The translations under genes were made by a program, and so were the position numbers. 64,000 nucleotides of DNA, from positions 15,376,142-15,440,141 of the forward strand of contig CAJINV010000001.1 of the NCBI GenBank assembly GCA_905178155.1, written 5' to 3'. The stretch's first letter is position 1. Each line of letters begins with the position of its first letter. Positions 2 to 64,000 of the stretch are shown one piece after another. The notes beneath the pieces were generated by a model, which did not search any database, was not told the origin of the DNA, and was given only the letters and a program-made list of their open reading frames with translations. The stretch comes from Amoebophrya sp. A120. Lineage: Eukaryota; Protista; Dinoflagellata.

Positions 2-3000
2 AAAGAGGACAAGGTGGAAGAAAACAGTCAAGGGAGTAGCCTTCACAAAGCAGTTCTTGGGAGGTGCACCCCGCTGACCGACGCTACGACCAAAGAAGCG
101 TGTCGCAGTGAGCGGGAGGTGTCGATCGGGGCCAGCAGGGATAATCCGGACAACACGAACTTCTACCTGCGCAAGGGCATGACCCGGTGGGTGACGAAGC
201 GGCACTTGAAGTCGGGATACGACCCAGAGAAGGACCCGTGGGAGGCCAAGCTGTGGTGCGGAGACGACGAGTTGGGGCCCGTCTTGGATCCCTCACTCTA
301 CAAAGATATGCGGCACTCGAAGCAGTGGTTCGATCATATCAAGATCGGGTACAGCACTGACTCAGGTAAGGTGGAACTCACTCCGGTTCAGTGCGACCCC
401 GGCGGCTATAGGCTTTTGGGCTGCTACAAGGACAATGAGGATGACCGAATCTTGTTGGGACTGCAGCCGGCTCTCTCCGTGGGCCCGTACTCTCTGCGCG
501 AGTGCGCCTTCATTTGCAAAACCGGGAACGTGCAGCAGCGAGCGTTCGACCTCTTCGGGCTGCAGGACGGCAACCGGTGTTTCTGCGGTGTGCGCGAGGA
601 GCACGACTACACCCGGTTTGGGCCAGTAAGTGGGGAAAACGCGTGCAGCACCGAGTGCATGTACATCGACCCCTACGACCAGTCGGTCGGGAACACCTGT
701 GGTGGCCACCTTCAAATGTCGGTCTATGAGTTTGGGTGGCCGCTGCAGGAGCTGGGGTCGGAGAGCAACGAGTGCCGCGAGCTGACCGACGGCGCGACAA
801 TGGAGCGGTGCGCCTCGCGGCTCTGGGTGGCCTTCGGAAACGCTAACGGAAAGCAGGAAGGGAGCAAACGCGGCACAATCAAGTACGCGCGCAAGGAGAT
901 GAGGCGCACTTTCGTGAAGCGCGAGCTGGGGATGCTCGAGAACGAAGCGGGAGCGGTTCTGTACATGGGCTGCGGCACTGGAACGGGACAAGAAGGAGAA
1001 TTCCACAAAGACGGCCAGCACAACAAAAACGATATCATGAGGGTCCGTATGAACCCGGGAGATAAAGCGGGGGGGTTGAATCCGGCGAATTGGGTGCACT
1101 CGAATGTGTGGTACGACCACGTCATTGTGGACTACAAAACCGGGGGCGGCAAAGTGAACTTCACGCCCCTGCAGTGCGATCCTGGTGGCTACGAATACCT
1201 CGGCTGCTTCCAGGACCAGCGGGAGGATCCAGCAATGGGTGCCGACCATCCCGCCGTCACCAAGCCCCGCAGCGTGCGCGAGTGCGCCCACGACTGCCGG
1301 AAATATCTGCACTTTGCGCTTCGAAACCAGGATGAGTGCATCTGCGGGGGTGGCCTGAAGTCCTCCGCCGCTCCTGCCGCGTCTTCGTCTTTCCTTGACG
1401 AGGCAAGATCAAGAAAGAAGGCCACCATCACACATATGGTGGCAGAGCACGACAACCCAGCATTGGGCCGCGTCAGTCCGGGGCTGAAAAGCGATGACGT
1501 GGAGGATAAGTACGAGGAACCCGACGTTAACCCGCCAAGCTACGCCCGCCACGGGCCGGCCAAGCGGTCGGACTGCAGCAGCCCCTGCCTGGCTTCTGTG
1601 GGCGACGACTATGACCAAAGCGTGGGCAACATGTGCGGAGCCACGGACGGCGACAAAACCGTGACGCGAATCTCGGTGTACAAGTACGGGTGGCCGATGG
1701 CCGGACAGGACGGGTGCCTCAACCTACTGAACGAGACGCAGAAGGAGGGCGGCAGCACGATTTCCGCGGACGAAACCATGGAGCGGTGCCGAGGAGAGTA
1801 TGCCGTGCAGTTCGGCCGCGTGGATTCAGGCGCGGACGAGGAGACGAAAAAGAAAGAAAGGGCCGCGCTCCCCTGGATCCGCAAGGGCATGAAGCGGACG
1901 TTCGTAAAGCGCGAGCTCGGCGGGTTTACCGACGAAGGCTACCTGTTTTGCGGCAACGACGAGCTTCGCATGAAAATGCACCCAGAGATCAAGGGCGCCA
2001 GTGCGGGGGAAGTCGCTGGAGACATGTTCGCGGTGGGCGCCGCGGTGGGCGCCACTGTTGCGTTGGGGCCAGTGCTTGGCGCCGCAATAATGTACGGGCG
2101 GCAGCTATGGAAGTGTCAGGACTGAAATCGTCAGAGTTGAAATAGTTTGCCATGCATAAAATGCAACCCACAGAATGCCTGTCTTGCAGAGTAGGCAAGT
2201 GAGGCAGATTGTAAGCCTCTTGAGGGGTAGAAACTGAGCTGCTAAAGTAGCACGACAAAAGGCGTCTTCCTTACCCAAACAGCATGACAAACTGGATTTC
2301 GGTTCTACCCAAATTTGTCATGCGCCACTTCGAAACTCAAACTGGGCCACAACTTTCATCCATTTTATGCATTACAAGTCTTCAACTTTGTGGATTTCAG
2401 TCCTGACACATCCATAGCAGCCGAATCCAAATGACTGGACCCCGTCGAGGCTGTGGTACGATCACGTGGAGATAAACTACGAAGAGAAAACCGGCGAATT
2501 CCGGACGACACCACTCATGTGCGGCATCGAAGGCTACGAGCTATCTCATGCAAAATCGCCATCACATCAACATCATTGAAGTAAGTACTTAACTCAATAA
2601 TTATTTGCCCTGTGTGTGTACGGAGTACAAAGAAATGCATACAATAAAGCAGCATGACCAGAAGAGTTTCAGTCTGAGTATATATAAGCTTTGCATTGCG
2701 ATTTCGGGGACTTGATTGTGAAGGCGATTTTGGTTAGGATACGAGCTGCTGGGGTGCTACAACTTCTCACCCGGAGATGCCAAGCTGATGGAAACGATGG
2801 CGAGTAGCACGCATCAGAAACCCTTGTTCCGAAAAGTTTCCCCGATGCCAACGCAGCCGCGCTCCCCTCGTGAGTGTTCGCACGACTGCCGGCATTCGGG
2901 ATTCTTCTTTCTTGCAAACGGCGTAGAGTGCTACTGCGTAGACGACGACAGGCTGAAGAGCGAAGCGAACCTGTTGGTTCCCTGCATGCCCTTCCGGGGC

Positions 3001-7227: not shown

Positions 7228-10200
7228 ATGACAGTCGACCAAGAAGTTGAAAGCAACGAGATGGGAGCAGGTCGCAGGGGTCAAGGGGAGGATGCAAGTA
7301 GCTCCATGCACGTCGTGGATCAGGACGACTTTTTTGCGGAGCTGGAAGAAATGATCTTCCAAGAAGACGAAACGGAACCAGAACCGGCAAAAAACCGTGT
7401 CCGGCGAGCATCAGAAGAGGTGCAAGAACCTGAAAGAACCTCCCAAAGACGACAAATGGGCCAGCGCTTCGCCACACCAGGCAACTCTAGTTCGTCCTCA
7501 GCCCGCAGAAGTGCTTACGCAGATTTTCCACCAGGAAAGCTTGTCGAATCGAGTGTGAATAACTGTGCTCCTTCCGCCGGCAAGGGCAAAGCGTCTATGA
7601 GGACTTCATCACCAAAGAGTTCGAAAAGTCTCCATCCGATCGCCCCCTGCCTCGGTTCCGCGACGGGTAACAAAAGACGAAGAGAGCATAACCAGGAACA
7701 CGAGCTATTCTTGCGTCCGGTTCCGGTTGTAGATATGAACACGGCTTCGTCTAGCACACACGAGCCTTTCTGGGCGACGTTCGAAAAACCGACGAAGCGA
7801 CAAAAACGGGCTAGCGACAAGGTATTTTCCCCGAAGTCTGAGTGGTATCTACGAGAAGAACTGAGGTACACGCACAACTCGGGTATGTTGATTTCATCGG
7901 CCGCGGCTGGAACGACGAGATCTGCGGGGGAAGAGGCGACCTACAGCCAGGACGTGAACAAGACCCTGATCCGGGATGGTCTGTTTCACCCATCGTTGCC
8001 AGACCTGGTCGTCGCGCGGATCCTGGACTACGTTCCCTGGCAGAACTTGGTGCTTCGGGTGGCGCTGCTGAACAAGCGGGCGTATGCGCTGGTGTTCACT
8101 ACCGAAGAATTGTGGTACAACGCGTACTATCCTGTGCAAAAGTATCGCACTCGTCCTAATTGCAAATATGCATGACAAATGTTTTTCCCAAGGCAAAACA
8201 GCATTACAAATTCCACTTCCCTTTTTGGCAAAATTTGCAATGCAATTTCTACTAGTACGATAATTTTGCAATGCATACGTACAAGCAGTACTTTTCCCGC
8301 ATGTTCACCCGCCAAGTGATGGAGGGCGATTTCAAGGGCTGGACGCAGCGCGGCGTGCAGCTTTTGTCCCGGCGCGATGGCGTTTTTCCCTGTCTGCCGC
8401 CGCTGCGACAAGGGTACCTGCCGCAGCGGGAGGATCTTTGTAAAAACTCGTCCTGCTGGCTGCCGGATTGTGTGGCCGGCTTGTGGGCAGCCTCTTCGGC
8501 GACATCTTCGGGCACACACAATTTTAATGCGTCGAGTCAGAAGATAGATCGTGCGGTGGATCACCGGTTTCGCACAGTACAGGCGCCGCATCAAGGCCAT
8601 GGTACCTCAGAGACCGACTTGGCACGACGATTTACAAGTGGGAAGCGGGACGGGAAGAATTTGGTCGGTCTTTCATCTACTGCTGCCTCGGCTTCTCCTG
8701 CGAAGGTAGCCACCACGTCGTCAAACAGCCACCAGGAGGAAAAGAGAAACAATGAACCACGACCCGAGCAAAAGAAGAGAACACTGCTACCCTTCTGGTT
8801 TCTCTTCTTTCGCCATCTCTACCTCACCAAGGAAGTGGAGCGCGTGTCCAGCCAGGCCGAGGACTGGAAGGATTTTAGCACACTGATGCGGACGGTCGTC
8901 GCTGCCGAGGAGGGTGAAAATCTCAGAGGAGACCACTCAGTCTCCGGCGCGGCTACGGGAAACAAGCGAGCGCCGCGTACGATCGCAGACCTGCTGGATG
9001 CAGATGCTATCATCGAAGATTTTCAGCAGCAGGTGGTCAAAAACCGCACGAACCGCCTGGTCATGTGCACAAATAATGAAAAAACAGCGAATGGCAATGG
9101 TGCGACTTCTTCAGGGTCACCAGGGAGGACTACAGAGACAGTGACATCCACCGCTCCTGCGGTCAAGGTGGAGCGGGGGCAACTAGAAGTGAAACATGAT
9201 CGCAAAAGAAGCTTAGAGCAGGAGCTACCGGACGAGGGTAAGAGCAAAAAGACAAACTCCATGTCGCCGTCGCCCGCTGGTGCCTCAGTTTTTCCACCCT
9301 TCGGAGACGGTGTGTACGGGCTTTCGCTTCATGCTAAGGGATCTTCTGCACATCAAATTCCGCCAGCTGTATCAGCGGAGCCGACGGTGTCGGTTGTTCA
9401 GCCGAAGGACCTGAACGTCCCGACCTCGAGCAGTAGAGCAGGGCAGCACGCTGTGTCTGCACCCCCACCACCTCTGCATAAGACTCGGGCGAAAGAGGTT
9501 TCGCAGTCCCGCGCGCAGAAGCTGAAACTCCACACATTGCCAGATGAATTTTGGTGTCAGGCGGTGCCATTGGACAACGTCGGCAGGGACGATGAGGGCT
9601 CGGCGCAAGGAAAAACGGTGTCACAAACGACCAAATCTGAGCTAGGCCCGACGAGAGTGGTCACTGTTGACCGTACAACCACGCGTCGTTGGCACGTGTG
9701 GCAGAGCTTGTGGCACGGGCCCTGGCCGCGCACCGACAAACGAAAAACGCGGATCCTGGGGTGCGTGGAGTGCGGGTTTGTGCACCGGTGCCGCGAGAAC
9801 GAGCTGTGCGAGTTCACCGTCGAGGCGGACAGCCACACGCACGTGTGCGCGGTGTCCGGGGAGGTAAAAAGTCGCCGTTTAGTCGCGGAGCGGCCGGCGA
9901 ACAACGAGGACGCGTATTACGTCGACGACGAGTATCAAGTACCGCAGGAAATGTTCCCCAGAATAGCAGCCTACAACCCCAACTCGCAGCGGCACCAGCA
10001 GGAGCAGCAGCGTGGCGAGCAGCTAGGCGCGGGCCTCCGCGAAGATGACGTGCTTGTGGTGGAAGATGAGGAAGAGGAGGAGGCGGTCGAATCTCGCTTG
10101 GACCGAAAGCGCGTCGCTACGAGAACGCACATCCACGCCGGTGGTGTGCGGGAGCACCTGGTTTACTCCACGAGGCACGACAGGAACGACTTGTGCCTTC

Positions 10201-11706: not shown

Positions 11707-12603
11707 CAGCATGGGTTCATACATTTTATTCGCCTAAGTACTCTTTCTGTCCCTGAGACTAAGGCTGGTACAAAACACCCGCGCCTGCACTTTCATTATC
11801 ATGATCTCTCGAGAAGTTTTTGTTTTCAGTTTTCTGCAACCAATTAATTTGAGCTGCGCGAACATTACACGGACACAAGTCAAATGAAGTGTCTTGGCTC
11901 ATGATCTTGAGGAGCGTTATTTGCTGTGCGGACAGCCTGACAAGACGAGAAGCTCAAGCGGCATATTGTTCGGAATTTCAGTGGTGCCTTTGTCCAAGTG
12001 AAATAGGTGAGGTGGCTGGAGTTGTCAGACATAGCTTTTGTTTGTCTGTGGAATAACGATAATTGTATGACGAAGATAGGATTGTTGATCATGTTGTAGT
12101 TGTGTCCGCTTCGAAGCCCGCCCGTCGAAGTTCTGTTTGAGGTTGATCATTATATATTTTGATTTTCGCGGAAATTTTTTGTGCAAAATTCTTGGATCGA
12201 TCGTTATTGTATGTAGTGTCATTTCCGAAGCAAGAGATCCTGAAAGAGATCGCTATCCGCATATTGATTTTTTTCGGTGGAAATGATGGCGTTGCTGTTG
12301 CAGCAGATGTTGAGTGTTGTGGTTTCCTTTTCCGATTTGTGGAGATCTGTATCTTATTTCGCTCTTGAGACCTCATACATAGAACGCCCGTTTTCACATA
12401 TTGTTTTTCGCAGTTATTTTTTGATTTTGAGGCGTTGAGAGACCCTTTTGGCTTGTCGCAGCAGTATCTAATCTTAGTAATATTTTCCCTAACTTTATTG
12501 TTTGTTTTTGCTGACTCATCCACCCACGGCTTTTGCCCTTGCTCTCAAGAGGAAGACGGGCACGGCGACCTTTCCTCATCTCATTTTTTTGCACATTTAC
12601 ACC

Positions 12604-14062
12604 ATGCTCCCTTCAGTTTTGCACCAGGCCCCGCCGGCGCGGTTTCAGAAACTTGTTCAGGCGGTGGAGCAGTTGGCGCCGCCGAGTTTGGCGGAAGGTT
12701 GGGACAATGTCGGACTGCTGCTGGACTGTCTAGACGAAACTAGATGGAGCGAATCTTCCTTCAAGCCAAGAATATTCCTCTGCAACGACTTGACCGAACG
12801 CGTTGCGGAGGAGGCAATTACCAAAAAGGTCGACTGCGTTGTCACCTATCACCCCACACCGTTCGCGAAGTTTAGAACCGTTACGCGAACGACGCACATT
12901 GGTCGTGTTGTGCTATCTATGGTACAACAACTTGTATATTGATTTACACGACAGAGCTCTTGTTCTTAGCTTCCTTTTTCTTCCACACCTTCAATAGCGC
13001 GCTCGGAATCAATTCTTTTTCTTCCACAGCGTCACACTGAACGACGTCGATGACCCATCAGAAACGCATGGTGGATGTTCTTCTGTCACAACTACTGTCT
13101 TGCAACCACAAAATAAACGCAGATAACGAACCGTATCCCGGTCTACGCAACGCACACCTGCCTGGACTGTGTCAACAACGGGTTGAATGATTGGCTCATC
13201 AACGCGTTTCCCAATGTCGGAGAGATTCTTCCGTGCAACCCACTAGATGCGAAGCGACCAAACCTCGGCTCCGGCCGCGTTGGAAGTTTGCCCATGGCAA
13301 TCACAATCGACGACGCCGTCGGCCACGTCAAGACACTCACAGGGCTCAAGCATGTCCGCAGAGCCGACCCAGTCGATGGTGCATTTTTTTTATAACAGTT
13401 TTTCACTGCTTCTGGTTCTGTCTGGCAACTTTTTGTAGAGGAAATTTATTTTGTTTTTTAGGTGGGTGAGCAACGGCAAACAAGTTCCCTCGCACGGTTG
13501 CCATGTTGTCATTCATGTCTACTTCAATACGGACCGAACGCAAATCAGGCTCGCAGAAACCAATCCGAAGAGTCGCTGTTTGTGCGGGGTCGGGCGGCAG
13601 TGTGTTTAAGGATTACACTATCCAATGTAAAAGCGTACCTATCTTCCCTACTTCATCCTCGCGATACAGATTATTTGCATGCCCATGACGTGGGTCATGC
13701 GTGCCCCTGTGGCACCCATTTTGTAATCGCGTTTGGAAATTTCTTATGCTGTAATCAGAAAAAGAGAGCGCAAGCGGGTTTGTGCTGCGGATAGATTAGT
13801 TGATTGTGGGGTCGGTACGTTTTTACTCAGGAGATAAATGAGCAAAAATCCGGGAAGCGTGCCCGATCTTTTTCTCACCGGCGAGATGTCACACCATGAT
13901 GTGCTGGAGCTGAACCAAAATGGCGCCTTCGTCATCCTCACCGAGCATTCCAACAGCGAGCGACCCTTTCTCCCCGTGTTTCGCGAACGTCTGTTGGGCC
14001 TCTACCCCGACGCAGAAGTCGTGATCAGCGAAATAGACGCGGATCCCTTGTTTGTGGCGTAG
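12604..14062 (+). CDS. NIF3: NIF3/YbgI (DUF34) family protein; introns 12922-13122 (GT-AG), 13379-13548 (GT-AG), ~13617-13840 (non-canonical)
   Basis: Motifs LAEGWDNVGLL, VVTYHPTPF, VYATHTCLD...GLNDWL, RVAVCAGSGGSV, DLFLTGEMSHHDVL, ILTEHSNSERPFL and ISEIDADPL. Confidence 0.92.
13617..13840. mobile_element. Degenerate inverted-repeat non-canonical intron #5 (boundaries approximate)
   Basis: TATCCAATGTAAAAGCGTACC (13619-13639) pairs with GGTACGTTTTTACTCAGGAGATA (13814-13836). An in-frame TAA at 13835-13837 forces the acceptor downstream. I found no phase-compatible GT/GC-AG pair and no clean direct repeat. Confidence 0.6.
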
Positions 14063-14575: not shown

Positions 14576-17401
14576 ATGGCAAAGCACGGACTGGAGATGA
14601 TTGCGTTCGCTCTGCAACTTGCCACTTGCTTCTTGCTGCTGCCGACCGATGCCTACGACTCGTGTCGGGCCGACGAGCATGCGGGGTCCGTGCTCACAGA
14701 ACTCCTTGCACCGTACTGGGAGTTTATCCGACCCGGCCCTGAGGCGCAGAAGGAACTTGCGCACGCCGAGTCTGTCGGCGTCAAACTCAGATGGCTCGTG
14801 GAAAAGGCGCTAGAGAAGCGAATACCCAGGGGTCGCGGCATTCCCTGGCCGGAGGAGCGAGCAATCATGCTACGAAACCGGGGGCTTATGGGAGAAGGCG
14901 AAGCGGGCATGGTCGTACCACGGAACAAGGAAGGGACTTCTGGCGGCAGACCTTTGGTTTCTTCAGATCCGCGCAGAGAAAATGCGGAGAGAGAGGCCTG
15001 GTTGGTTACAAACGAAGATGTGGCTTGTGCGTTTCATGAGGGCATCGCCCTTCAGCAGCTGTGCGAGACGGTGTAATGTGTTTTTCAGTACGAAGCTTTG
15101 AGCTCGTTGCGACTCTATCATGAGTACTAATCAATACGTACATACAACGTCATCTTCATTAATTATATCGATTGTGGTGCTTCATCTGCATCGGGAATGT
15201 TGCTGACTTTGAAACCTTCGTCAGGTCTACAACTTCTTCAATGCGCACATTGGGCCGTTCATGGAGCAAAATCGCTGTGGCAACCTAGACGCAAGTTCTT
15301 GCAACATCGAGCCCTTTATTCAGAAGTTGACAACCAGCCGTGTTCTGGGTGACGCGTTGCGTGATTTCGTGGAGTCTTGGGTACAAAGTTCAAAAAGCTT
15401 CGAAGAACTGGTGGCGCAAGACTACAGCACGGAGTCATCGGCTGCCGCACCCCCGGCAGAGATTTTCTCGGACGCCAAACGGTTGGAGCGTATCCAAAGC
15501 CGGCTACTAGACGAAAATTTGCTTCTCGCCGCGGGCAGCACCACCACTGCAGAGACGATTGCAGGAAAAACAAGCAAAACGCTTCTAGAGGATGTTGACG
15601 GCGGTAGAAGTAGTAGAGAAGCAGCAGCACAAGAAGTGCGCGACATTCTTGCAGGCTCGGATGTCTCGGAATTGCGGGACACGGACCTGGAGGGCGAACT
15701 AGTGCAGCACGATTTGCTCCTTTTGCCGCGGCTGGAAGATCAATCCGAAGCCAAAACAAATCCAACGGGGGAGACAAAACAAGGGACAGATCATGCCAGT
15801 AGTTTCGCAGAATTGTCACCTTTTTCGTCGCGAAAAAAACAACTTACGAGCCCCTACCAGTGCCCTCGGTTTCTGAATATGCACCTGGATCTCATCGCCC
15901 AGGGCTCAAACGGGCACTGGATTTTGCAGACTTTGCGCGACTACGAGTCCGTCGACGATCGGTTCCAGCTTCAGCACCGTTTTCGACACTGGATGAACGG
16001 GTTTCTGGAGGCACGGGAGAAGCTGCTGCAGATTATCAAAGTCAAAAAAGCCCCCACCCCATATCGGACACGAAATTTGTGATGCTGTATTTGAGTACAC
16101 AAATCGACTTGTATTGCTAGAAGGCCAAGAGACGCAGCTGCGGCCTGAATTGCAGGCAATCTGTCATGCTGTTTCCCACTTCCAGTTGCCTCCTGTCATG
16201 CTGGAGCTGCAAGCCTTTCCCACGCTAGGCAGCACTACAGTCCGCATCTTTTGCCTTCTAGCATCACAAAGCCACAAATCTGCATCACAGATTTCCGTTT
16301 TGATATGGGGAGGGGGCATTTTTCCTCACAATGCAGATCTGGAAAATGAGGAAGGACATCACCGGGATGCTCGCGCCGCACCGACAGTACAAGTCCATGG
16401 ACGACTTTCGCGACTTTTCCCAAATCGACTGGAACTGGCTACGGCTACCGAACTCGTGGTCGTTGGACCGAGGGCTGAAACGGTGGAACGTCGTTTGCGC
16501 CTTGGTGGAGCAAGCCGTGTGGGAAAAATTTCGCGTCTGGCGCGGGACGGAGTACACCGACGCAAAAAGTAGAACTTCGAAAGGACGATTTTCGCAGAAG
16601 AACGTGATCCACGTGGCGGAAATCGGCGTCTTCGTCGGCGAGACGTCACTGTATTTGCTCAGCCGCTGTTTTCGGCACCTCTACCGAGAGTCGAATATCC
16701 TGGTCCAGTACCATCTCATCGACCCGTGGGAAGTGGATGCATTCGGCGGCTTTCTCGACTTCTATCGTGCGACCAAGGGCTACACGGAGCAAACCGGGCA
16801 CGACGTGTATCGAAATTTAGTGCAGAAGCTCGGGAATGCAACCAGTTTGTATGAAACCAGCGACAACGAGGACGTCGCAGGGACCACGCCGGAAGGAACA
16901 TCAACAAGCAAGGTAGCGGAAGATGAGATTTCGACGGTTGCGGGAGAGGAGCAACGCACGAACTCCGCGCTTTGTTTGAAAAAAAGAATTAACCACGAGC
17001 GCTCCCCCGTTCCGCTTTTCGAGGTCAAGTATCGCGACCTCCACGGGAAAGAAATGTGCGCGGGAGAAAAGATTCCGGAAAATAGGCCGGGCGTGTTCTT
17101 CCACCGGGTCTTTTCGCACCAGGCGAGCAAGAGGCTAAGTGTCCTCGATGTCCTTTATGTGGACGGGGAGCACAGTTTTCACGGCGTGCACACGGATCTG
17201 AAGCACTTCGTGCCCCTCACACGGTACGTGGTCGCGGGGCACGACTTTGACTACTACAAATTTCCGGGGGTCACCATGGCCGTGTTGAACGCCAAAGTGC
17301 CTACCACGGACGCGTTCCGGCAGTACGGATTCAGGTTTCAACAAGAACTCTACCTCGACTCTGATACCACTTGGTGGAGTCGACTGAATAGAATGAAATA
17401 A
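14576..17401 (+). CDS. Signal-peptide class I SAM-dependent methyltransferase (Methyltransf_24-like), paralogue A; introns 15071-15224 (GT-AG) and ~16032-16336 (introner)
   Basis: Hydrophobic N-terminus IAFALQLATCFLLLPTDA. Motifs VAEIGVFVGETS, YHLIDPW, LDVLYVDGEHSFHGVHTDL and VVAGHDF. It is colinear with paralogue B. Confidence 0.82.
16034..16333. mobile_element. TIR introner #6; TAT...ATG ends, 5-bp direct repeat CAGAT; absent from paralogue B
   Basis: CAGAT at 16029-16033 and 16334-16338. AAAAAAGCCCCCACCCCATATCGGACACGAAATTTGTGATGC pairs with GCATCACAGATTTCCGTTTTGATATGGGGAGGGGGCATTTTT. Removal gives KLLQIWKMRK, matching the uninterrupted KLIQIWKMRK at ~19608-19637. Confidence 0.9.
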
Positions 17402-17820
17402 AAAAAAGACGACGTCTTGATGCTCTATCTAAAAAAAATAAGACATTCGAGAACGGATTGGACTTCGCAAAAAGACGAAGGAAATAACGCGCGAACCGAT
17501 GACGGCCATGGCTATGCGTAATACATGGTTTATCAAGAAACCATGTGTGAATGTGATTCATCATCTGAAGTTTCTGCTTTCCACTCCTCCCGCAGTGACT
17601 CTCAAACAATACGATCGGATTTTCGAACAACTCCTTCGTGAGTGCTGACTCTGCGTCGTCGTGTTGTCGTGTTGTAAGAGCCACGCAAAAAAACGACACC
17701 GTTCAGGTTTTGCTGGCAAAACAAAGAAAAACAAAGCACGCGCAGGACTAAGGCGACTAGAAACCCTCTGAGCCTTTACTTCATGTTGTTGGGTTCTACT
17801 TCTACGTTTCATCGCTCTCT

Positions 17821-20800
17821 ATGGCTGCTTTAGATGAAAAATCCAAAATGGCGACTCGCAGACACCACTTGGCTGCTGCACCTTCGACGGCTAATATGAG
17901 CGTCAAGCTTCTTTCCGCCGTATTCCTATCTGTTCTGATGAATTCGTTCTGGCCATCCACGACGACCTGGAAGGTGATGATTTCTGCGTCGAGATCATTT
18001 CCGTTCGACTCGTGTCGAGGGGATCTACATGCGGGCGCAGTTCTGACGGAGCTGCTCGCGCCCTACTGGGAGTTCATCCGACCCGGGCCTGAAGCTGCGA
18101 GAGACCTCGCACATGCGGACTCAGTCGGGGTGAAGCTAAAATGGCTGATCGACAAAGCCCTGGAATATTCCTTGAAAATTTTTACCATCCTAATCCAATT
18201 TGTCATGCTAAACATGGACGAGATCGAGAAAGAGAATCGGCTTTTGTGGTGCCAAAAACGGATGGGGATGGTAAAATTTCAGGGAATATGGAAAAGCGCA
18301 TCCCATGAGGTCGTGGCATTCCATGGCCGGAGGAGAGAGCGGTAATGCTTCGAAATCGCGCTAATCGCGAGCGAACTGGAGATCCAGTTCCAGGGGATCC
18401 TGGGGTTGGTGGAAACAGCAGGGAAAGTAGTACACCAAAGGCGACATCCAGACATCAAGCCGACGGGACTAAAGATGGCAAAATTACCGTAGTGGCCCCC
18501 GCAAGAAGTATGTCCGGACTACTTGTCAGCTCAGATCCTTCACCAAGTAGAGAAGTTGCTGCACAGAAGGAGTCCTGGCTCGTGACGAATGAGGACGTGG
18601 CGTGTGCTTTTCATGAAGGAATCGCCATTGAGCAGCTGTGCGAGACGGTGTAATGTCTTTTCAAATTTTATTGATTATTCGAATCGATCGACTTCACGCT
18701 GAAGCTACAAAAGCAACATGAATGCTTGAAGAAAAGGTGCTATAGATTATAAGAACAGCGGAATCGCTCTTCTTTTCTGTTTACCTTTACCTGCGGTGAT
18801 TTTTTTCCTCGATTTTTTTATCAGGTCTACGACTTCTTCCGTGTACACATAGGCCCCTTCATGGAGGAGCACAGATGTCCGCTGTTAGACTCGAACTCTT
18901 GCAAGATCGAGCTCTTCGTCGAGAAGCTGGCGGAGAGCCGTGTCCTGGGCGACGCATTGCATGGCTTCGTGGAATCTTGGTTGACAGCAGCAACGAAGGT
19001 TGAAAGAGCTGCAGCGAAATTACAGGTAGAAGGCAGCGACGTCAGCAGTGCGTCCGAGTCCGACAGAAACAGTACGATGGCAGGTGGCGAACGCCTGAAG
19101 CGCATTCAGAGCATGTTATTAGACGGAGACCTGGCCCAGTCGCGCAAGCGAAGTACTAAGGAAAGAGAACGACCTCCCGAGGATGCATTGGTCGACCACG
19201 TGGCAGCTGAAGCTGTTATCGCACTTTTCGCGAGTAAAGCGGACGGCGCAGAATTGCGAGCCGCGGAGCTGGAGACGCAGTTGCCACAGCACTACGGGCT
19301 TGTCGCTCTCGATGAACCAAAAACAGTACCACTGGGGGAAAATGAACAACTAAGGCGGGTATCATCAAATGAAGACCTCACACCTCGAGCTCCTTCCAAG
19401 CAGCTTGCTGCAACCCGGCTCTTTTCCCACCAGTGTCGTCATTTTCTGAACATGCACCTAGATCTCATCCAGCAGGGCGCCAATGGACACTGGATGTTGC
19501 AAAGCCTGCGCGAGGAGGACCCGTACGACGAGTCGAGGGACAAAGAACGGCTTCAGCTCGAGCATCGTTTTCGTGACTGGATGAACGGGTTTGTGGACGC
19601 GCGGGACAAGCTGATACAGATTTGGAAGATGCGCAAAGACGTCGTCGGGATGATGGCTCCGGACCGCGAGAACTACTATCCTTTGACGGAGAAAAACCGC
19701 GACTTTTCCCAAATCGACTGGAACTGGTTCCGGCTGCCGAACTCCTGGTCGGTGGACCGGGAGATGAAGAGGTGGAACGTCGTTTGCGGCCTCGTGGAAC
19801 AAACTGTCTGGGAAAAATTTCGCGTGTGGCCGCGGCGGGGTACAAGATCACCGCACCGTTATAACAGCACCGCGTTTCGCCCAAGACGAGCGAAGGCTGC
19901 GAAACAGGCTAGTACAATGGGGCCCCCGAAGGTTATCCACATAGCGGAGATTGGCGTGTTCGTCGGCGAAACTTCGCTGTACTTGCTCAGCCGGTGCTTT
20001 TTGCGCCTCTATCAAGAGTCGAATGTCCTCGTGCAGTACCACCTGATTGACCCCTGGCAGTCGAACACTTTCGGCGGGTGGAACCCCTGGGAAGTCAAAA
20101 GCTGGCTCCTCGATTTCTATCGCGCGACGCGGGGAGACACGGCGAAAATGACGGGGAGCGACGTGTACAGAACCCTCATGCGGAGAGTCGGGAACGCCAC
20201 GACCTTGTATGGGGATCGTCGTTACGGGGACGCACCCGCAGCGCCAGAGGCTCTCGGAAGGCCGCCCACAGGACGAACGAGAGGGGGCTCTGATGCTACG
20301 CTGAGGAGTGCTTCTGTTGCCGATGGCACCGGCGGTGGCGGTACAGCCGCGAGCTTTGCCTCGGCGTTAGCCGGAAATAAGGAGATGTCCTCTGCGACGC
20401 CGTGTCTGCGGAAGAAAATTCACTCCAGGAAATCTCCACTTGCTGTGTACGAAGTTCAGTATCACGACCTCCACGGACGGAGCGCGTTGTGCGGTGTGTC
20501 CGAAATAAAGATTCCGGAAAATCTGCCAGGCGTATTCTTCCATCGCGTCCTTTCGCACAGGGCAATAGAGCGGATAAGTGTCCTAGATCTGCTTTACATA
20601 GACGGGGATCACAGCTTTGCTGCCGTGCATGCCGACCTCCGAAACTTTGTGCCGATTACGCGGCATGTGGTCGCTGGGCACGACTTTGACTACTACAAGT
20701 TCCCAGGAGTTTCGATGGCTGTTATGAACGCCAAAGTGCCCACGACGGACGCTTTTCGGCACTTCGGGTTCAGATTTCAGCAAGACCTCTACCTCGACTC

Positions 20801-20843
20801 AGACAATACTTGGTGGAGTCGATTAACCTCTATGCCTGAATAG
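17821..20843 (+). CDS. Signal-peptide SAM methyltransferase paralogue B; introner 18166-18293, GT-AG intron 18648-18824; in-frame TGA at 18306-18308 (possible pseudogene or null allele)
   Basis: It has the same motifs as paralogue A (IAEIGVFVGETS, LDLLYIDGDHSF, VAGHDF) and shares the canonical intron at CET|VY. The spliced frame reads KALEKRIP*GRGIPWPEER versus KALEKRIPRGRGIPWPEER in A. The start codon is uncertain (17821, 17848 or 17896). Confidence 0.75.
18166..18288. mobile_element. TIR introner #7; TAT...ATA ends, 5-bp direct repeat TGGAA; absent from paralogue A
   Basis: TGGAA at 18161-18165 and 18289-18293. TATTCCTTGAAAATTTTTACCATCCTAATCC pairs with GGATGGGGATGGTAAAATTTCAGGGAATA. Removing 128 nt gives KALEKRIP, identical to paralogue A (14803-14827). 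Confidence 0.92.
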
Positions 20844-27250: not shown

Positions 27251-28837
27251 ATGTTCGGATTCGGGGGCAGTAACAGCGGTGGTGCGTTCGCCGCCCAATT
27301 CGGTGGAGGCAACGGTGGCTCCACCGACCAGCAGCAGTCGCAGAATTTTTTTGGCAGTGGCGTGGTAGCGCAACCCGGCGGCCTACAGGGCGGCGGTGGC
27401 TTTTTGCACGGTACACCGACACAAGACGCAACGGGCGGCGAGCAGGCAGGTGGTGGTGCGCGGACAGGCGGTGGCAACGCCGGTGGGAATACCGGGGATC
27501 AGATAAGTCGAAAAACAACGTCGGTGTCCTGCTACCAAGTGCACCAGATGGTCAGCGAGAACATGAAAAACGGCTCTGACGCCACACTCAAGCTCTACGG
27601 GGAGGAGGTACGTGTACAGTTATAGAAAAGAAGTAGTCGTGTGAACGTGAAGACTAAGCTCAAAAAACAAATAACTCTGCGCTGGTGCAAATGAGGGAAG
27701 GGACATAACTCCTGGTAAGCTTTTAGTTTTTTGATGTTTTTTCTGCCAACGCGTTGGCCTGTGCTTCTTCCCAACCGCGACCTACAGAGGCGCATCTAGT
27801 ATATGTTTTCGTGCGAACACTCCCGCAATTCTATTTCTAATACATACGTCGCTCCTCACTTCCAGGTGCAATACTTGGCTCTGACGGGCGTAATACGGAA
27901 GTGCAACAACGAAGAACGAGACATGGACACGGCTTTGGAGATTTTTCTGGATGACCAGACCGCGGTCGTCAAAGTGCGCAAGTATTTCGATGGGACCAGC
28001 GAGCACGAGGCAGCGCTACACGAGTATACAACAAAGCATATTTTGATGATTTGGCAGACTAAAGTAGATTCTCACTCTCGATCTCGTTTCGATTTCGCCT
28101 ATGGATGGAGTATAATTACTTCTGCCCAGAGGTGAGCTTCACTTTCTCTCTAGCAAAGCAAATACTTGTTCGCCAAACCAAAGAACCTTCACAACAGCTC
28201 TCTCGCCCCGTCCATGATGATTCGTGTAGTTGGAACGGTGCGGATGCACGGTAGCATGTTTTGGCTAGCCGCGATTAAGCTCGAAAAGTTGTCAGAGCTT
28301 GGGCAGATGTATGCCGACGCTATGACTCAGTATCGGCTCCTGCAGAAGTACATGATGAAGAGACAGGAAGAACTCGCACAGCAGGGCCAGCTACAACAAC
28401 CAGGAGCGGCCGGCGCTGTTATTAATGCTGGAGGCCAGCACCAGCAACCATTAACTGTAGGTAGCAACAATCTCGTTTCTGGTGGCCTTCCCCCTTCTGC
28501 CGCTGCCGGGCACCCCGCCGGCGGGTCTGGGCTGCCGCAGATGAATGTCGTGAACATGATGGCGCAGCAGCGGCAGCAGGCGCAAATGCAGCAGCAAATG
28601 CAGCAACAACACGGAACGTTGTCGGGCACGCAGCTCCGCGACGGCATCTTGCGTGTTTTGCGGGACGGCACCAAGGACATCGAAAAGCCGGACGGACTGA
28701 CACTAGACGATATCACCGCGCAACTGGGCGCCGGTGCCGACAAGCAGGAAGTGGCGCGATTTGTGCAGGACCTCTGCAACGACGGACAGATTTTCACTGG
28801 CGACACGGATGACAGGTATCTTCCCTCAGACTGCTGA
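27251..28837 (+). CDS. RPA2: Replication protein A 32-kDa subunit-like; GT-AG introns 27608-27865 and 28024-28197
   Basis: Gly-rich N-terminus (GGGGFL), an OB fold (VQYLALTGVIR...FLDDQTAVVKVRKY...IRVVGTVR), a Q-rich linker and a C-terminal winged helix (GLTLDDI...LCNDGQIFTGDTDDRY). Confidence 0.85.
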
Positions 28838-53272: not shown

Positions 53273-54874
53273 GCCTGACGAGTGCTACTGCCTCAGCGTC
53301 AACGACTTCTACTTACTTTCTAATCGTCTTGAAGTCTTAATATGTGTAGAAAGTATCATAAAAATAAATGATTGCATGCACTGAATTCGCGAAGATGTAC
53401 ATGAACAACAACACCTGTGCACTTATTTTGTCTGTGCGATTTTTCTTTTTTCATCACGCAAAAAATGAAAACAGCCACCACTTTGTATGCTGGCGGAAAT
53501 TACGTTTTTGAGCGTGAGAAAATGAAAAAGCAGGTTTTCGCACTCTCACAAGCGGCTGCTTGATTCTGTCCACTAGGGTTTCAAAAAGAAATTGCACTAG
53601 GCCCGGTAACGCAAAACAAGTGGTGCTCTTTCGCGAAAAAATCTCTTGGCGATGAATTTCGGAGGTCAAAAAAACAAAGGGGCTTATCCACAGGCCCACC
53701 GCGTGAGCATTATATATATATTTTTGCCGACATCTGTTCAGCTTCAGATGTCGGCAAAAATAAAAATAATGCCTCCCCCTCGCGAAAGCGGCCATGCCAT
53801 TCGGCAGTTCGTACTTTGGCGAGCTCTAATTCACTAGAGCAACGTAGTCGGTGAGCTCTAATTTACTAGAGCAAAGGCCCAACGACAACGTGGGAGCATG
53901 CCTAGCTAGCAGCCGCAACACCATCGACCGTGCGGCAGCGGGTTGTCCCGCTCCTTGCGGCCGCAAGCTTTTCTTTTACGACGGATGTCTTGTTGATTTT
54001 GTTCGCCTGAAACAACAGCTTAGAGCGTGGCCCGAAGCGGGCTGCAGTGTTGGACCGCGAACCCTGAGTCGCGCCTCAAAAGTGGCGTCCGCGAGGGCCG
54101 CGCTCTCATCCTCTAACCAGACAGCCAAGGGCTGCGTTGCATCCTTCGTGCGTGTGCGGTTTGCGCGCACCACTTCCTGTGCACTGCAGTCGTCACCACC
54201 CCGCCCTTTCATTGGTCGTTCCCGCGCACCACTTCCACTACCTTTCATTGGTCGTGCTGCTCCTGATTGATTGCAGTCGTATGCATGACAACCGAAACTA
54301 CGACGGCAGGCGGTTAAGCCCCCCCCCCCCGCCCACGACTTTTCGCCGTAGTTCTCCAGGGCGCTTGTCGTTTTATATATTGTCGCTTGTCTTGTAGATA
54401 CTTGTACTCGGCTGAACCTGCTGAAGGAATGCAGCGGGCGAGCATCTGAACTCTAAATAAAGAGGGGACAAAATATCGCTGTAGATTTTGATTATAATCT
54501 TGATGAACAGATTCATTCAGTTTCAGATTGATGTAGAGTGTTTGCAAAACAAGCCATAATCCCCCATCCACACATTGCGCTCGCGTGAAAAGCAAAACGG
54601 CAGCATTGTGTGCCACTCTTGGTAAACTCGGCTCGCCAAGAACTGCCATCGTTGTCAGAGCATGCCCATGCGCTATCGGTAGTTCGCCGTGCTTGGGCTG
54701 CGCCACTCGTGGAACGCGAAACTGCGCAGCTTTCGTAGACAGTAAGTAAAATAATTCATCTCATGACTTCAGACGCAAACTAAAGAAGGCAAGTTAGTAA
54801 ATGTTGGCACTGGCGCTGATTATCAAGTCATAGCCGGAAATCTGTCTGGCAGTGCAGGTGCAGGAAGCACGGAG

Positions 54875-62236: not shown

Positions 62237-63066
62237 TGACGACCACACGATGCGTTTTGTATCTACTTTGAGGATAACCGAGGAACGCGACAAGAACACG
62301 CTTGTCCAAATTGGTTCTGGACTGGACGTGAGTCGTTTCCTTGTCGAGGGAGCGCACAGATTCAAAGAATACAATTAGAGCATACGAATAAGAAAAAAGA
62401 CGTCTTTAGCGACGCCCTGCTCACCGGTGTCGACACGCTAGTAGTCAGGTTTCTTCGCGAAAATCCTCCCAAGTGAGTTTAAGTAAGGCAAGCAGTTGGT
62501 TTTGATAGTTTAGGACTGAGATCATGTCGCTGCCAAATAATAGAAGTTGCCGGAAATCAAATAAAAACGATGTCAAGATCGAAGTCATGTTCATGATGTG
62601 CAGCGCAGGTGTCGTCTATCGGCGGCACGAAGATCGTAGAAAAGTCAGCCAAGTGATTTTGAACAGTGAGGCACTCAGATCTGCGTTCAAATGTGCAACA
62701 TGCAATCTAGATCCCAAATAGAATAAAACGGGCTTAATAATCGTCGCTCCGTCACGATCACGTGCCTTACCAGAGCACGGCGGTTCAGAATTTGCAAATA
62801 GTGGATCAGCAGATCGCGGCTCAGAATTCATGTGGTAGCTCTCGAACCATTACTGGAAAATTCAAATTGTTGACTACGACCAAACTACTTCTCTCGATTG
62901 ACTTTCTTAGTTCGCAATTGAAGCTATGACCATCATCATTCTCACCACCCCAGCATAGAACATACCGGAAACGAATAGCGTTCTAACACACTAGCGTCTT
63001 CAATAGAGCCTATCCGTATTTTAACCTCCCGCACAGCGTTTCTCGCAAAGCCCAGAAGCAATCAAA

Positions 63067-64000
63067 ATGAAGGTGAAGATGAAGAAGAAGGTTCTGGTGA
63101 AAAAGAAAAAAGGTTCGCTCAAGAAGCAGGCCGCTCCTGCTGCTCAAGAGACTGTCGCGCCTTCCAAGACTACTGCTACCAAGACTAGGCAGGTTGCGGA
63201 CATTGCACCCGTCCACTTAATACAAGAAGAGAAACAAGTGGCAGCAGATGAAAATGGTGCAAGCGAAGATGCTGACATGGAAAGCGATGAGGAAGGTGCG
63301 GCATCTACTGGAGACAACGATGACATCGACGAAATGGATGCTGATGATGTCGTTCCGGTTGAGCAGAAAAACCAGCAGAAAGGCGGTTCTTCGTCCTCCA
63401 CAGGCTCTTCTTCAAAAGTAGATTCTAATGAATCCGAAAACGCAAAGCAAGACATCGAAAACGCAACTTTTGCCTCGCTCGGCGTGTGTCCGGAACTTTG
63501 TCAGGCGGTCGAGGTTCTCGGATGGAAGCAGCCCACGGAAATCCAGCGTGTCAGTATTCCCCCGGCACTGGAGGGCAGGGACATTATCGCGCTGGCGGAA
63601 ACGGGAAGTGGGAAGACCGGCGCGTTCGCACTGCCGATCGTGCAGGCATTGCTGGACAAACCACAGCGGTTTTTCTGTGTGGCGCTGAGTCCGACGCGAG
63701 AACTGTGCGTGCAAATCGGGGAACAGTTCAAGGCACTCGGTGCAGCGATCTCATTGCAGGTATGCGTGCTGTTGATGAAGATACAAAATGCGGCTGCTTT
63801 TTAATTTTCTGAATCATTCCGTACGGTTCTCGTTTTTCAGTAAATTATGCAAGAAACGAAAATGTTCATCCGATAAAAAATCGATTTTCAATATGACACC
63901 TTCATCAGGTTTGCGTAATTCTCGGTGGCGTCGACATGGTGACGCAAGCTCAGCAGCTGGCCCAGCGGCCGCATGTTGTGGTCGCGAGTCCGGGTCGGCT
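63067..64000 (+). CDS. DDX47: DEAD-box RNA helicase DDX47/RRP3, 3'-truncated; GT-AG intron 63760-63908
   Basis: Q motif (TFASLGV...[10 protein letters not shown]), [57 protein letters not shown]. Confidence 0.92.

Follow-up and report, generated by a model that had tools for sequence, protein, structure and literature searches.

Tandem Paralogues with Reciprocal Private Introns in Amoebophrya sp. A120: a Probable Case of Independent Intron Gain after Duplication

Introduction

When each of two tandem paralogues contains an intron that the other lacks, were the two introns gained after the duplication, or were they lost? The question is raised by a gene pair, here called A and B, located in a 64-kb stretch of the Amoebophrya sp. 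A120 genome (the window). According to an original prediction made from the sequence, A and B share one canonical intron, each carries an additional insert with terminal inverted repeats (TIRs) that is absent from the other copy, and two independent insertions after the duplication account for the pattern. The features of the locus are listed in Table 1, and intron positions are designated by the flanking residues, separated by a slash.

Table 1. Coordinates, within the window, of the paralogues, their introns and empty sites, and the comparison elements.
Feature	Position	Strand	Remarks
Element E1	2106..2416	+	TAT...ATA, direct repeat GCAGC
Element E2	2542..2741	+	TAT...ATA, direct repeat CGAGC
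Element E3	8128..8277	+	TAT...ATA, direct repeat CGTAC
Paralogue A	14576..17401	+	788 aa spliced, hydrophobic N-terminus, C-terminal Methyltransf_24 (PF13578) match
Empty site TAGAG in A, opposite the insert of B	14811..14815	+	
Shared GT-AG intron in A	15071..15224	+	154 nt; GT-GT in tandem at the donor, the second GT (15073) out of frame
Left direct repeat CAGAT (A)	16029..16033	+	
A-only element	16034..16333	+	300 nt, TAT...ATG ends, long hairpin, removed exactly in P0002
Right direct repeat CAGAT (A)	16334..16338	+	
Paralogue B	17896..20843 (start approximate)	+	880 codons spliced, one internal stop, Methyltransf_24 match
Left direct repeat TGGAA (B)	18161..18165	+	
B-only element	18166..18288	+	123 nt, TAT...ATA ends, hairpin, removed exactly in P0096
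Right direct repeat TGGAA (B)	18289..18293	+	
In-frame TGA in B	18306..18308	+	opposite AGG (Arg) in A; P0096 ends here
Shared GT-AG intron in B	18648..18824	+	177 nt; first 9 nt same as in A, interior alignment unclear
Empty site CAGAT in B, opposite the insert of A	19617..19621	+	

Results

Two Colinear Paralogues

Splicing by coordinates joined the exons of A (14576–15070, 15225–16033 and 16339–17401) into 788 codons with no internal stop, and those of B (17896–18165, 18294–18647 and 18825–20843) into 880 codons with a single internal TGA. Two further in-frame ATGs of B were found at positions 17821 and 17848. The codon-level alignment that had been proposed as a check showed the two genes to be colinear, with 444 of 768 aligned residues identical, and placed both private sites. 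Both products have a hydrophobic N-terminus and match the Pfam profile Methyltransf_24 (27.2 and 26.7 bits, with a gathering cut-off of 26.3), an assignment that is marginal, as about 40 of the 105 profile positions were covered. Several in-frame insertions were private to B (17896–20843), and protein evolution since the duplication was asymmetric, with a branch of 0.67 for B and of 0.11 for A, an approximately six-fold difference.

In the public annotation, the A120 model P0002 (CAD7929068.1) corresponded to residues 178–788 of spliced A and spanned LLQ/IWK, whereas P0096 (CAD7929070.1) corresponded to the spliced 5' part of B, spanned ALE/KRIP and stopped at the TGA. B was annotated as two pieces, a 119-aa model and a 660-aa protein. 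As described in Farhat et al. (2021, PMC7789003), the Amoebophrya gene models were derived from aligned transcripts and proteins, and ab initio predictors were not used. All seven unspliced ORF variants looked up were absent from the protein collection. Elsewhere in the window, Pfam matches identified neighbouring genes with a NIF3/DUF34 domain (12493–12942), an RPA C-terminal domain (28154–28837) and a DEAD-box helicase domain (63025–63804); 18 of the 23 window ORFs scanned had no Pfam match.

The Shared Intron and Its Tandem Donor

The canonical intron predicted at CET/VY was present in both paralogues, with the GT and AG ends at the expected coordinates. The donor is a tandem GT-GT in both genes, and the nine first intronic bases were the same in A (15071–15079) and B (18648–18656) although dS exceeds 1. 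Over the whole intron the alignment score was −4, barely above the shuffles (mean −15, maximum −2). In GSA25T00014218001, the model of the homologue from strain A25, the junction at this intron was located 2 nt further downstream, out of frame. Residues 1–16 of this model matched the conserved CAFH...CE block read in a shifted frame, followed by VY after two extra bases; 11 of 15 positions were compatible with A or B and 10 with A alone, where the null gave a mean of 3.5 and a maximum of 10 among 1256 windows. This fit suggests that the same intron is present in A25, which would support an ancestral origin, and that splicing takes place, on occasion at least, from the donor located 2 nt downstream. 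Inspection by eye revealed no microexon inside the shared intron that could cause the +2 junction. For A as for B, the public model begins at the first Met 3' of the shared intron; this may reflect the +2 junction, which predicts such starts, but truncated transcripts give the same pattern. The in-frame donor is favoured for the working mRNA because conservation is seen on both sides of the junction. Among 979 longer candidates, no full-length protein was found in which exons 1 and 2 are connected in frame across CET/VY, which is weak evidence, and in a search with exon 1, P0096 was the sole match among 51 candidates.

Two Private Inserts Facing Empty Sites

Each of the private inserts was found where it had been predicted, at LLQ/IWK in A only, between two copies of CAGAT, and at ALE/KRIP in B only, between two copies of TGGAA. 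The paralogue facing each insert had an empty site with a single copy of the target, at the coordinates given in Table 1. The description of TAGAG as a synonymous variant of TGGAA held in that both differences are synonymous, but only 3 of the 5 bases match. At the other empty site, CAGAT is largely dictated by the Q-I codons. The excised lengths, 305 nt in A and 128 nt in B, equal the element plus one repeat copy, and of 11 removal lengths per insert these alone restored a colinear protein. It is likely that both inserts leave the RNA along with one copy of the repeat, as suggested by their exact removal in two transcript-based public models.

Both elements were predicted to fold strongly (z of −8.3 for A and −6.0 for B). 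The inverted-repeat arms extended over 42 nt at 81% identity in A, with a poor match in the outermost 10 nt, and over 25 nt at 80% in B. Of the equivalent boundaries, 8 for A and 6 for B, none gave a GT-AG, GC-AG or AT-AC register. The left end of both elements had the form TAT-N7-AAA; outside of a 13-nt motif the two could not be aligned with each other, and no second copy of either was found within the 64-kb window. Inside the A element (16098–16280), the two copies of an 8-nt repeat, CACAAATC (16098 and 16273), lie on either side of a second, internal inverted repeat (16109–16128 and 16250–16269). These inner repeats possibly correspond to a nested insertion, or just to repeated subterminal motifs. 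A 39-nt reverse-strand match to the interior of the B element (82%) was observed at 28050–28087, upstream of the RPA_C ORF; no element ends were seen around it.

Five Elements with 5-bp Direct Repeats and a Common Motif

Three further elements, E1 to E3, were used for comparison. Removal of E1 and E2 opened one reading frame and removal of E3 opened another. An exact 5-bp repeat adjoined the TAT...AT[AG] ends in all five window elements, with five different 5-mers, and none of the five offered a GT-AG or GC-AG register. The TAT-N7-AAA terminus was present in four of them; E1 does not fit. A scan for TAT/CAT...ATA/ATG hairpin pairs, blind to direct repeats, returned 15 pairs, and the five with a perfect 5-bp flank repeat were precisely the five elements, whereas four shuffles produced no such case among 24 hairpin pairs. 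The other ten pairs consisted of three that lay inside the five elements or were offset from their ends, four pairs at the score threshold, two corresponding to a 61–64 nt hairpin and one 650-nt pair. The short hairpin (53708–53771) is AT-rich and apparently non-coding, and has no flanking direct repeat. A 5-bp repeat also flanked twelve further TAT...AT[AG] stretches, which were attributed to chance, as they lacked inverted repeats and scored −9 to 1, compared to 11–22 for the elements.

The five elements could not be aligned end to end. GCATGAC was nevertheless present in all of them, in many cases more than once and in either orientation; in random AT-rich sets of the same lengths, a 7-mer common to all five occurred in 19 of 5000 draws. 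The extended pattern GCAT[GCT]ACA[AG] had 12 matches in the window, 11 of which were inside the elements (1.7% of the bases), in four of the five, a concentration that is partly circular as the pattern was derived from them. GCATGAC is possibly a transposase-binding or splicing motif.

Divergence and Phylogeny of the Pair

The synonymous divergence between A and B was 1.32 in conserved blocks (401 codons) and 1.89 over 767 codons, with an overall range of 1.1–1.9, and 111 of 200 four-fold sites differed. The dS estimate, which had been proposed as a bound on the age of the insertions, was obtained but is near saturation and gives only a loose upper bound. The closest outside homologue was the A25 protein P0003, found in a protein collection clustered at 50%, in which a second A25 copy could be hidden; a search scoring 7998 candidates missed P0003. 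A and B grouped together against P0003 with supports of 100/98 in a ten-row tree and of 99/97 in a seven-row tree from which the long-branch rows P0007, P0009 and P0012 were left out (AU p = 0.023 against a grouping of A with A25), the outgroups being distant (approximately 25% identity) and the B branch long. Because of this grouping, the tandem duplication likely postdates the A25/A120 split. Metagenome scans for the orthologous locus gave none among 57 candidates with P0002 as the query, and with the alignment query A2 one match among 218, of 34% over 62 residues, which was judged a non-orthologue.

An In-Frame TGA in B

The TGA of B, absent from the original prediction, is located four codons 3' of the insert. 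A single stop, without any frameshift over the 880 codons, corresponds to approximately 0.01 substitutions per site of neutral decay, with an upper bound of 0.047, and the coding sequence 5' of the stop bears the mark of purifying selection (pN 0.105, pS 0.88). The TGA would thus be very recent, or mark a split gene, or be an assembly error. An altered genetic code for TGA was rejected: the codon aligns with Arg and not Trp, standard-code ORFs reach 1584 codons, and the public model ends there.

Discussion

Gain or Loss

The independent gain of both inserts after the duplication is, in our opinion, quite probable. It is the most likely reading of the tree, the divergence and the repeats together. 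The reason originally offered for it was weak, as a single-copy empty site cannot separate gain from loss: a precise intron loss also leaves one copy. It is unlikely, on balance, that one or both elements were in the gene before the duplication and were then precisely lost from one of the copies, for instance through cDNA recombination. This scenario does profit from the ambiguity of the empty sites, and Farhat et al. (2021, PMC7789003) describe gain and loss as indistinguishable in orthologue pairs. It requires, however, that the insertions fall between the A25/A120 split and the duplication, and with reciprocal loss the count rises to four events, two insertions in that interval and two precise losses, compared to two events for gain. 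Furthermore, A must have lost its 5'-most intron yet kept two downstream introns, both repeats of B show the synonymous state proper to B, and retroposition is described, in the available text, as rare in another Amoebophrya strain. Introner families are strain-specific in the account of Farhat et al. (2021, PMC7789003), in which 98.6% of the introns at positions conserved between strains are canonical. The neutral survival of both intronic repeat copies over half the divergence would have a probability of 0.011–0.0006. This calculation is void if splicing itself needs identical repeats, in which case their perfection is uninformative on age, and the presence of perfect direct repeats beside decayed inverted repeats allows that.

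The same observation bears on the nature of the repeats. Repeats of one length but of any sequence are the hallmark of staggered cutting. The constant 5-bp length with five different sequences, beside the TAT terminus, is the reason why we read the repeats as target-site duplications (TSDs), as did the original prediction, for which the single-copy empty site was an insufficient argument; this remains the most likely reading. That they are instead splicing signals, or chance microhomologies selected at intron ends, is decidedly unlikely. It speaks for such selection that the direct repeats are perfect in all five elements, in contrast to the visible decay of the inverted repeats, but five unrelated sequences of one length in a fixed place by the terminus are what a staggered cut predicts. 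Selection could also maintain the repeats while leaving their origin unexplained, and is compatible with insertion as its second step. It is very improbable, finally, that what B carries is a transposon inserted into a dead gene and not a gained working intron. The TGA four codons past the insert and the longer branch of B (0.67 versus 0.11) point in this direction. Against it, the insert is removed exactly in P0096, selection has acted upstream of the stop, and the arms of the B element differ far more than the decay of about 0.01 substitutions per site (at most 0.047) would allow. The insert of B likely predates the TGA.

A Proposed Scenario

We propose that a one-intron ancestral gene was duplicated in tandem after the A25/A120 split, as suggested by the trees, and that a non-autonomous TIR element with TAT ends then entered each copy via a 5-nt staggered cut, by which the target would have been duplicated. 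Duplications of 5 bp are typical of LTR-type integrases. The mobiliser might be an integrase-like DDE enzyme acting in trans, a guess made because the 5-bp duplications fit such integrases and because one A120 family combines TIRs with Copia/Gypsy-like ORFs, a candidate mobiliser type (Gozashti et al. 2025, PMC12130899). In the available text of Farhat et al. (2021, PMC7789003), no transposase was found in A120. In the RNA, the folding of the terminal inverted repeats, which was computed, may juxtapose the two repeat copies, and excision of the element with 5 nt restores the original codons, as seen in the two transcript-based public models. The removal would be guided by the hairpin instead of splice-site dinucleotides; U1 snRNA was undetected in the Amoebophrya lineage according to Farhat et al. 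(2021, PMC7789003). The nonsense codon would have been acquired later by B, leaving what is likely a very young pseudogene or a split gene.

A more speculative proposal, which we consider doubtful but worth stating, is that the numerous and seemingly unrelated TAT-ended introner families of A120 form one superfamily, recognisable by the 5-bp TSD and by GCAT[GCT]ACA[AG]. Together with the hairpin and a direct repeat under active maintenance, the motif might then act in cis as the signal recognised by a single mobilising enzyme, or as the one that directs a U1-independent excision without splice sites. If this were true, one genome would suffice to date and polarise gains, by means of paralogue pairs like the present one. 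One paper was found to contain both Amoebophrya and GCATGAC, the latter in a primer; the motif may already be visible in Figures S19–S25 of Farhat et al. or in the Gozashti et al. datasets.

A tandem pair that arose once the strains had separated, each copy being filled where the other is empty, makes a compact case for gain and illustrates, in the public models, the removal of an element with one repeat, leaving no trace in the protein. On its own, the case is a confirmation. The common internal motif and the uniform 5-bp duplication could matter more, as through them one may test what recognises and moves introns that lack splice sites.

Comparison with Known Introners

The inserts of A and B fit the introner elements described in A120 by Farhat et al. 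(2021, PMC7789003), and the element class, the 5-bp repeats and the TSD reading are already published. The non-canonical introns of that study have terminal inverted repeats, a hairpin and no transposase, and a direct repeat over the boundaries of 3–5 nt (5 bp in the legend of Figure S19), compared to 5 nt in the present inserts; the left ends of both inserts also fit the published terminus of TAT, 7 nt and AAA. The two analyses differ in the comparison made: orthologues between strains, with gain versus loss left open, in the text available from that study, and here paralogues within one genome. An internal motif common to families is not reported in the same text, whereas GCATGAC is present in the five elements analysed here. 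Gozashti et al. (2025, PMC12130899) likewise attribute A120 introns to diverse TIR DNA transposons; as far as the available text goes, paralogous genes were filtered out and not used, and the elements considered here measure 123–311 nt. In the texts searched, we found no paper with a paralogue-based polarisation of intron gain in Amoebophrya.

All five elements display the TSD of constant length and variable sequence by which MITEs and other non-autonomous TIR DNA transposons are recognised. Introner-like elements of Polarella glacialis and the Symbiodiniaceae (Roy et al., bioRxiv 10.1101/2020.10.14.339549) and introners of Micromonas and Aureococcus (reviewed in PMC11282704) are also transposon-derived, with a class-specific TSD length that includes a 5-nt class. 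As described in these sources, they differ in that the element or the TSD provides a G(T/C/A) donor and an AG acceptor, whereas a GT-AG or GC-AG register existed in 0/5 of the elements from A120.
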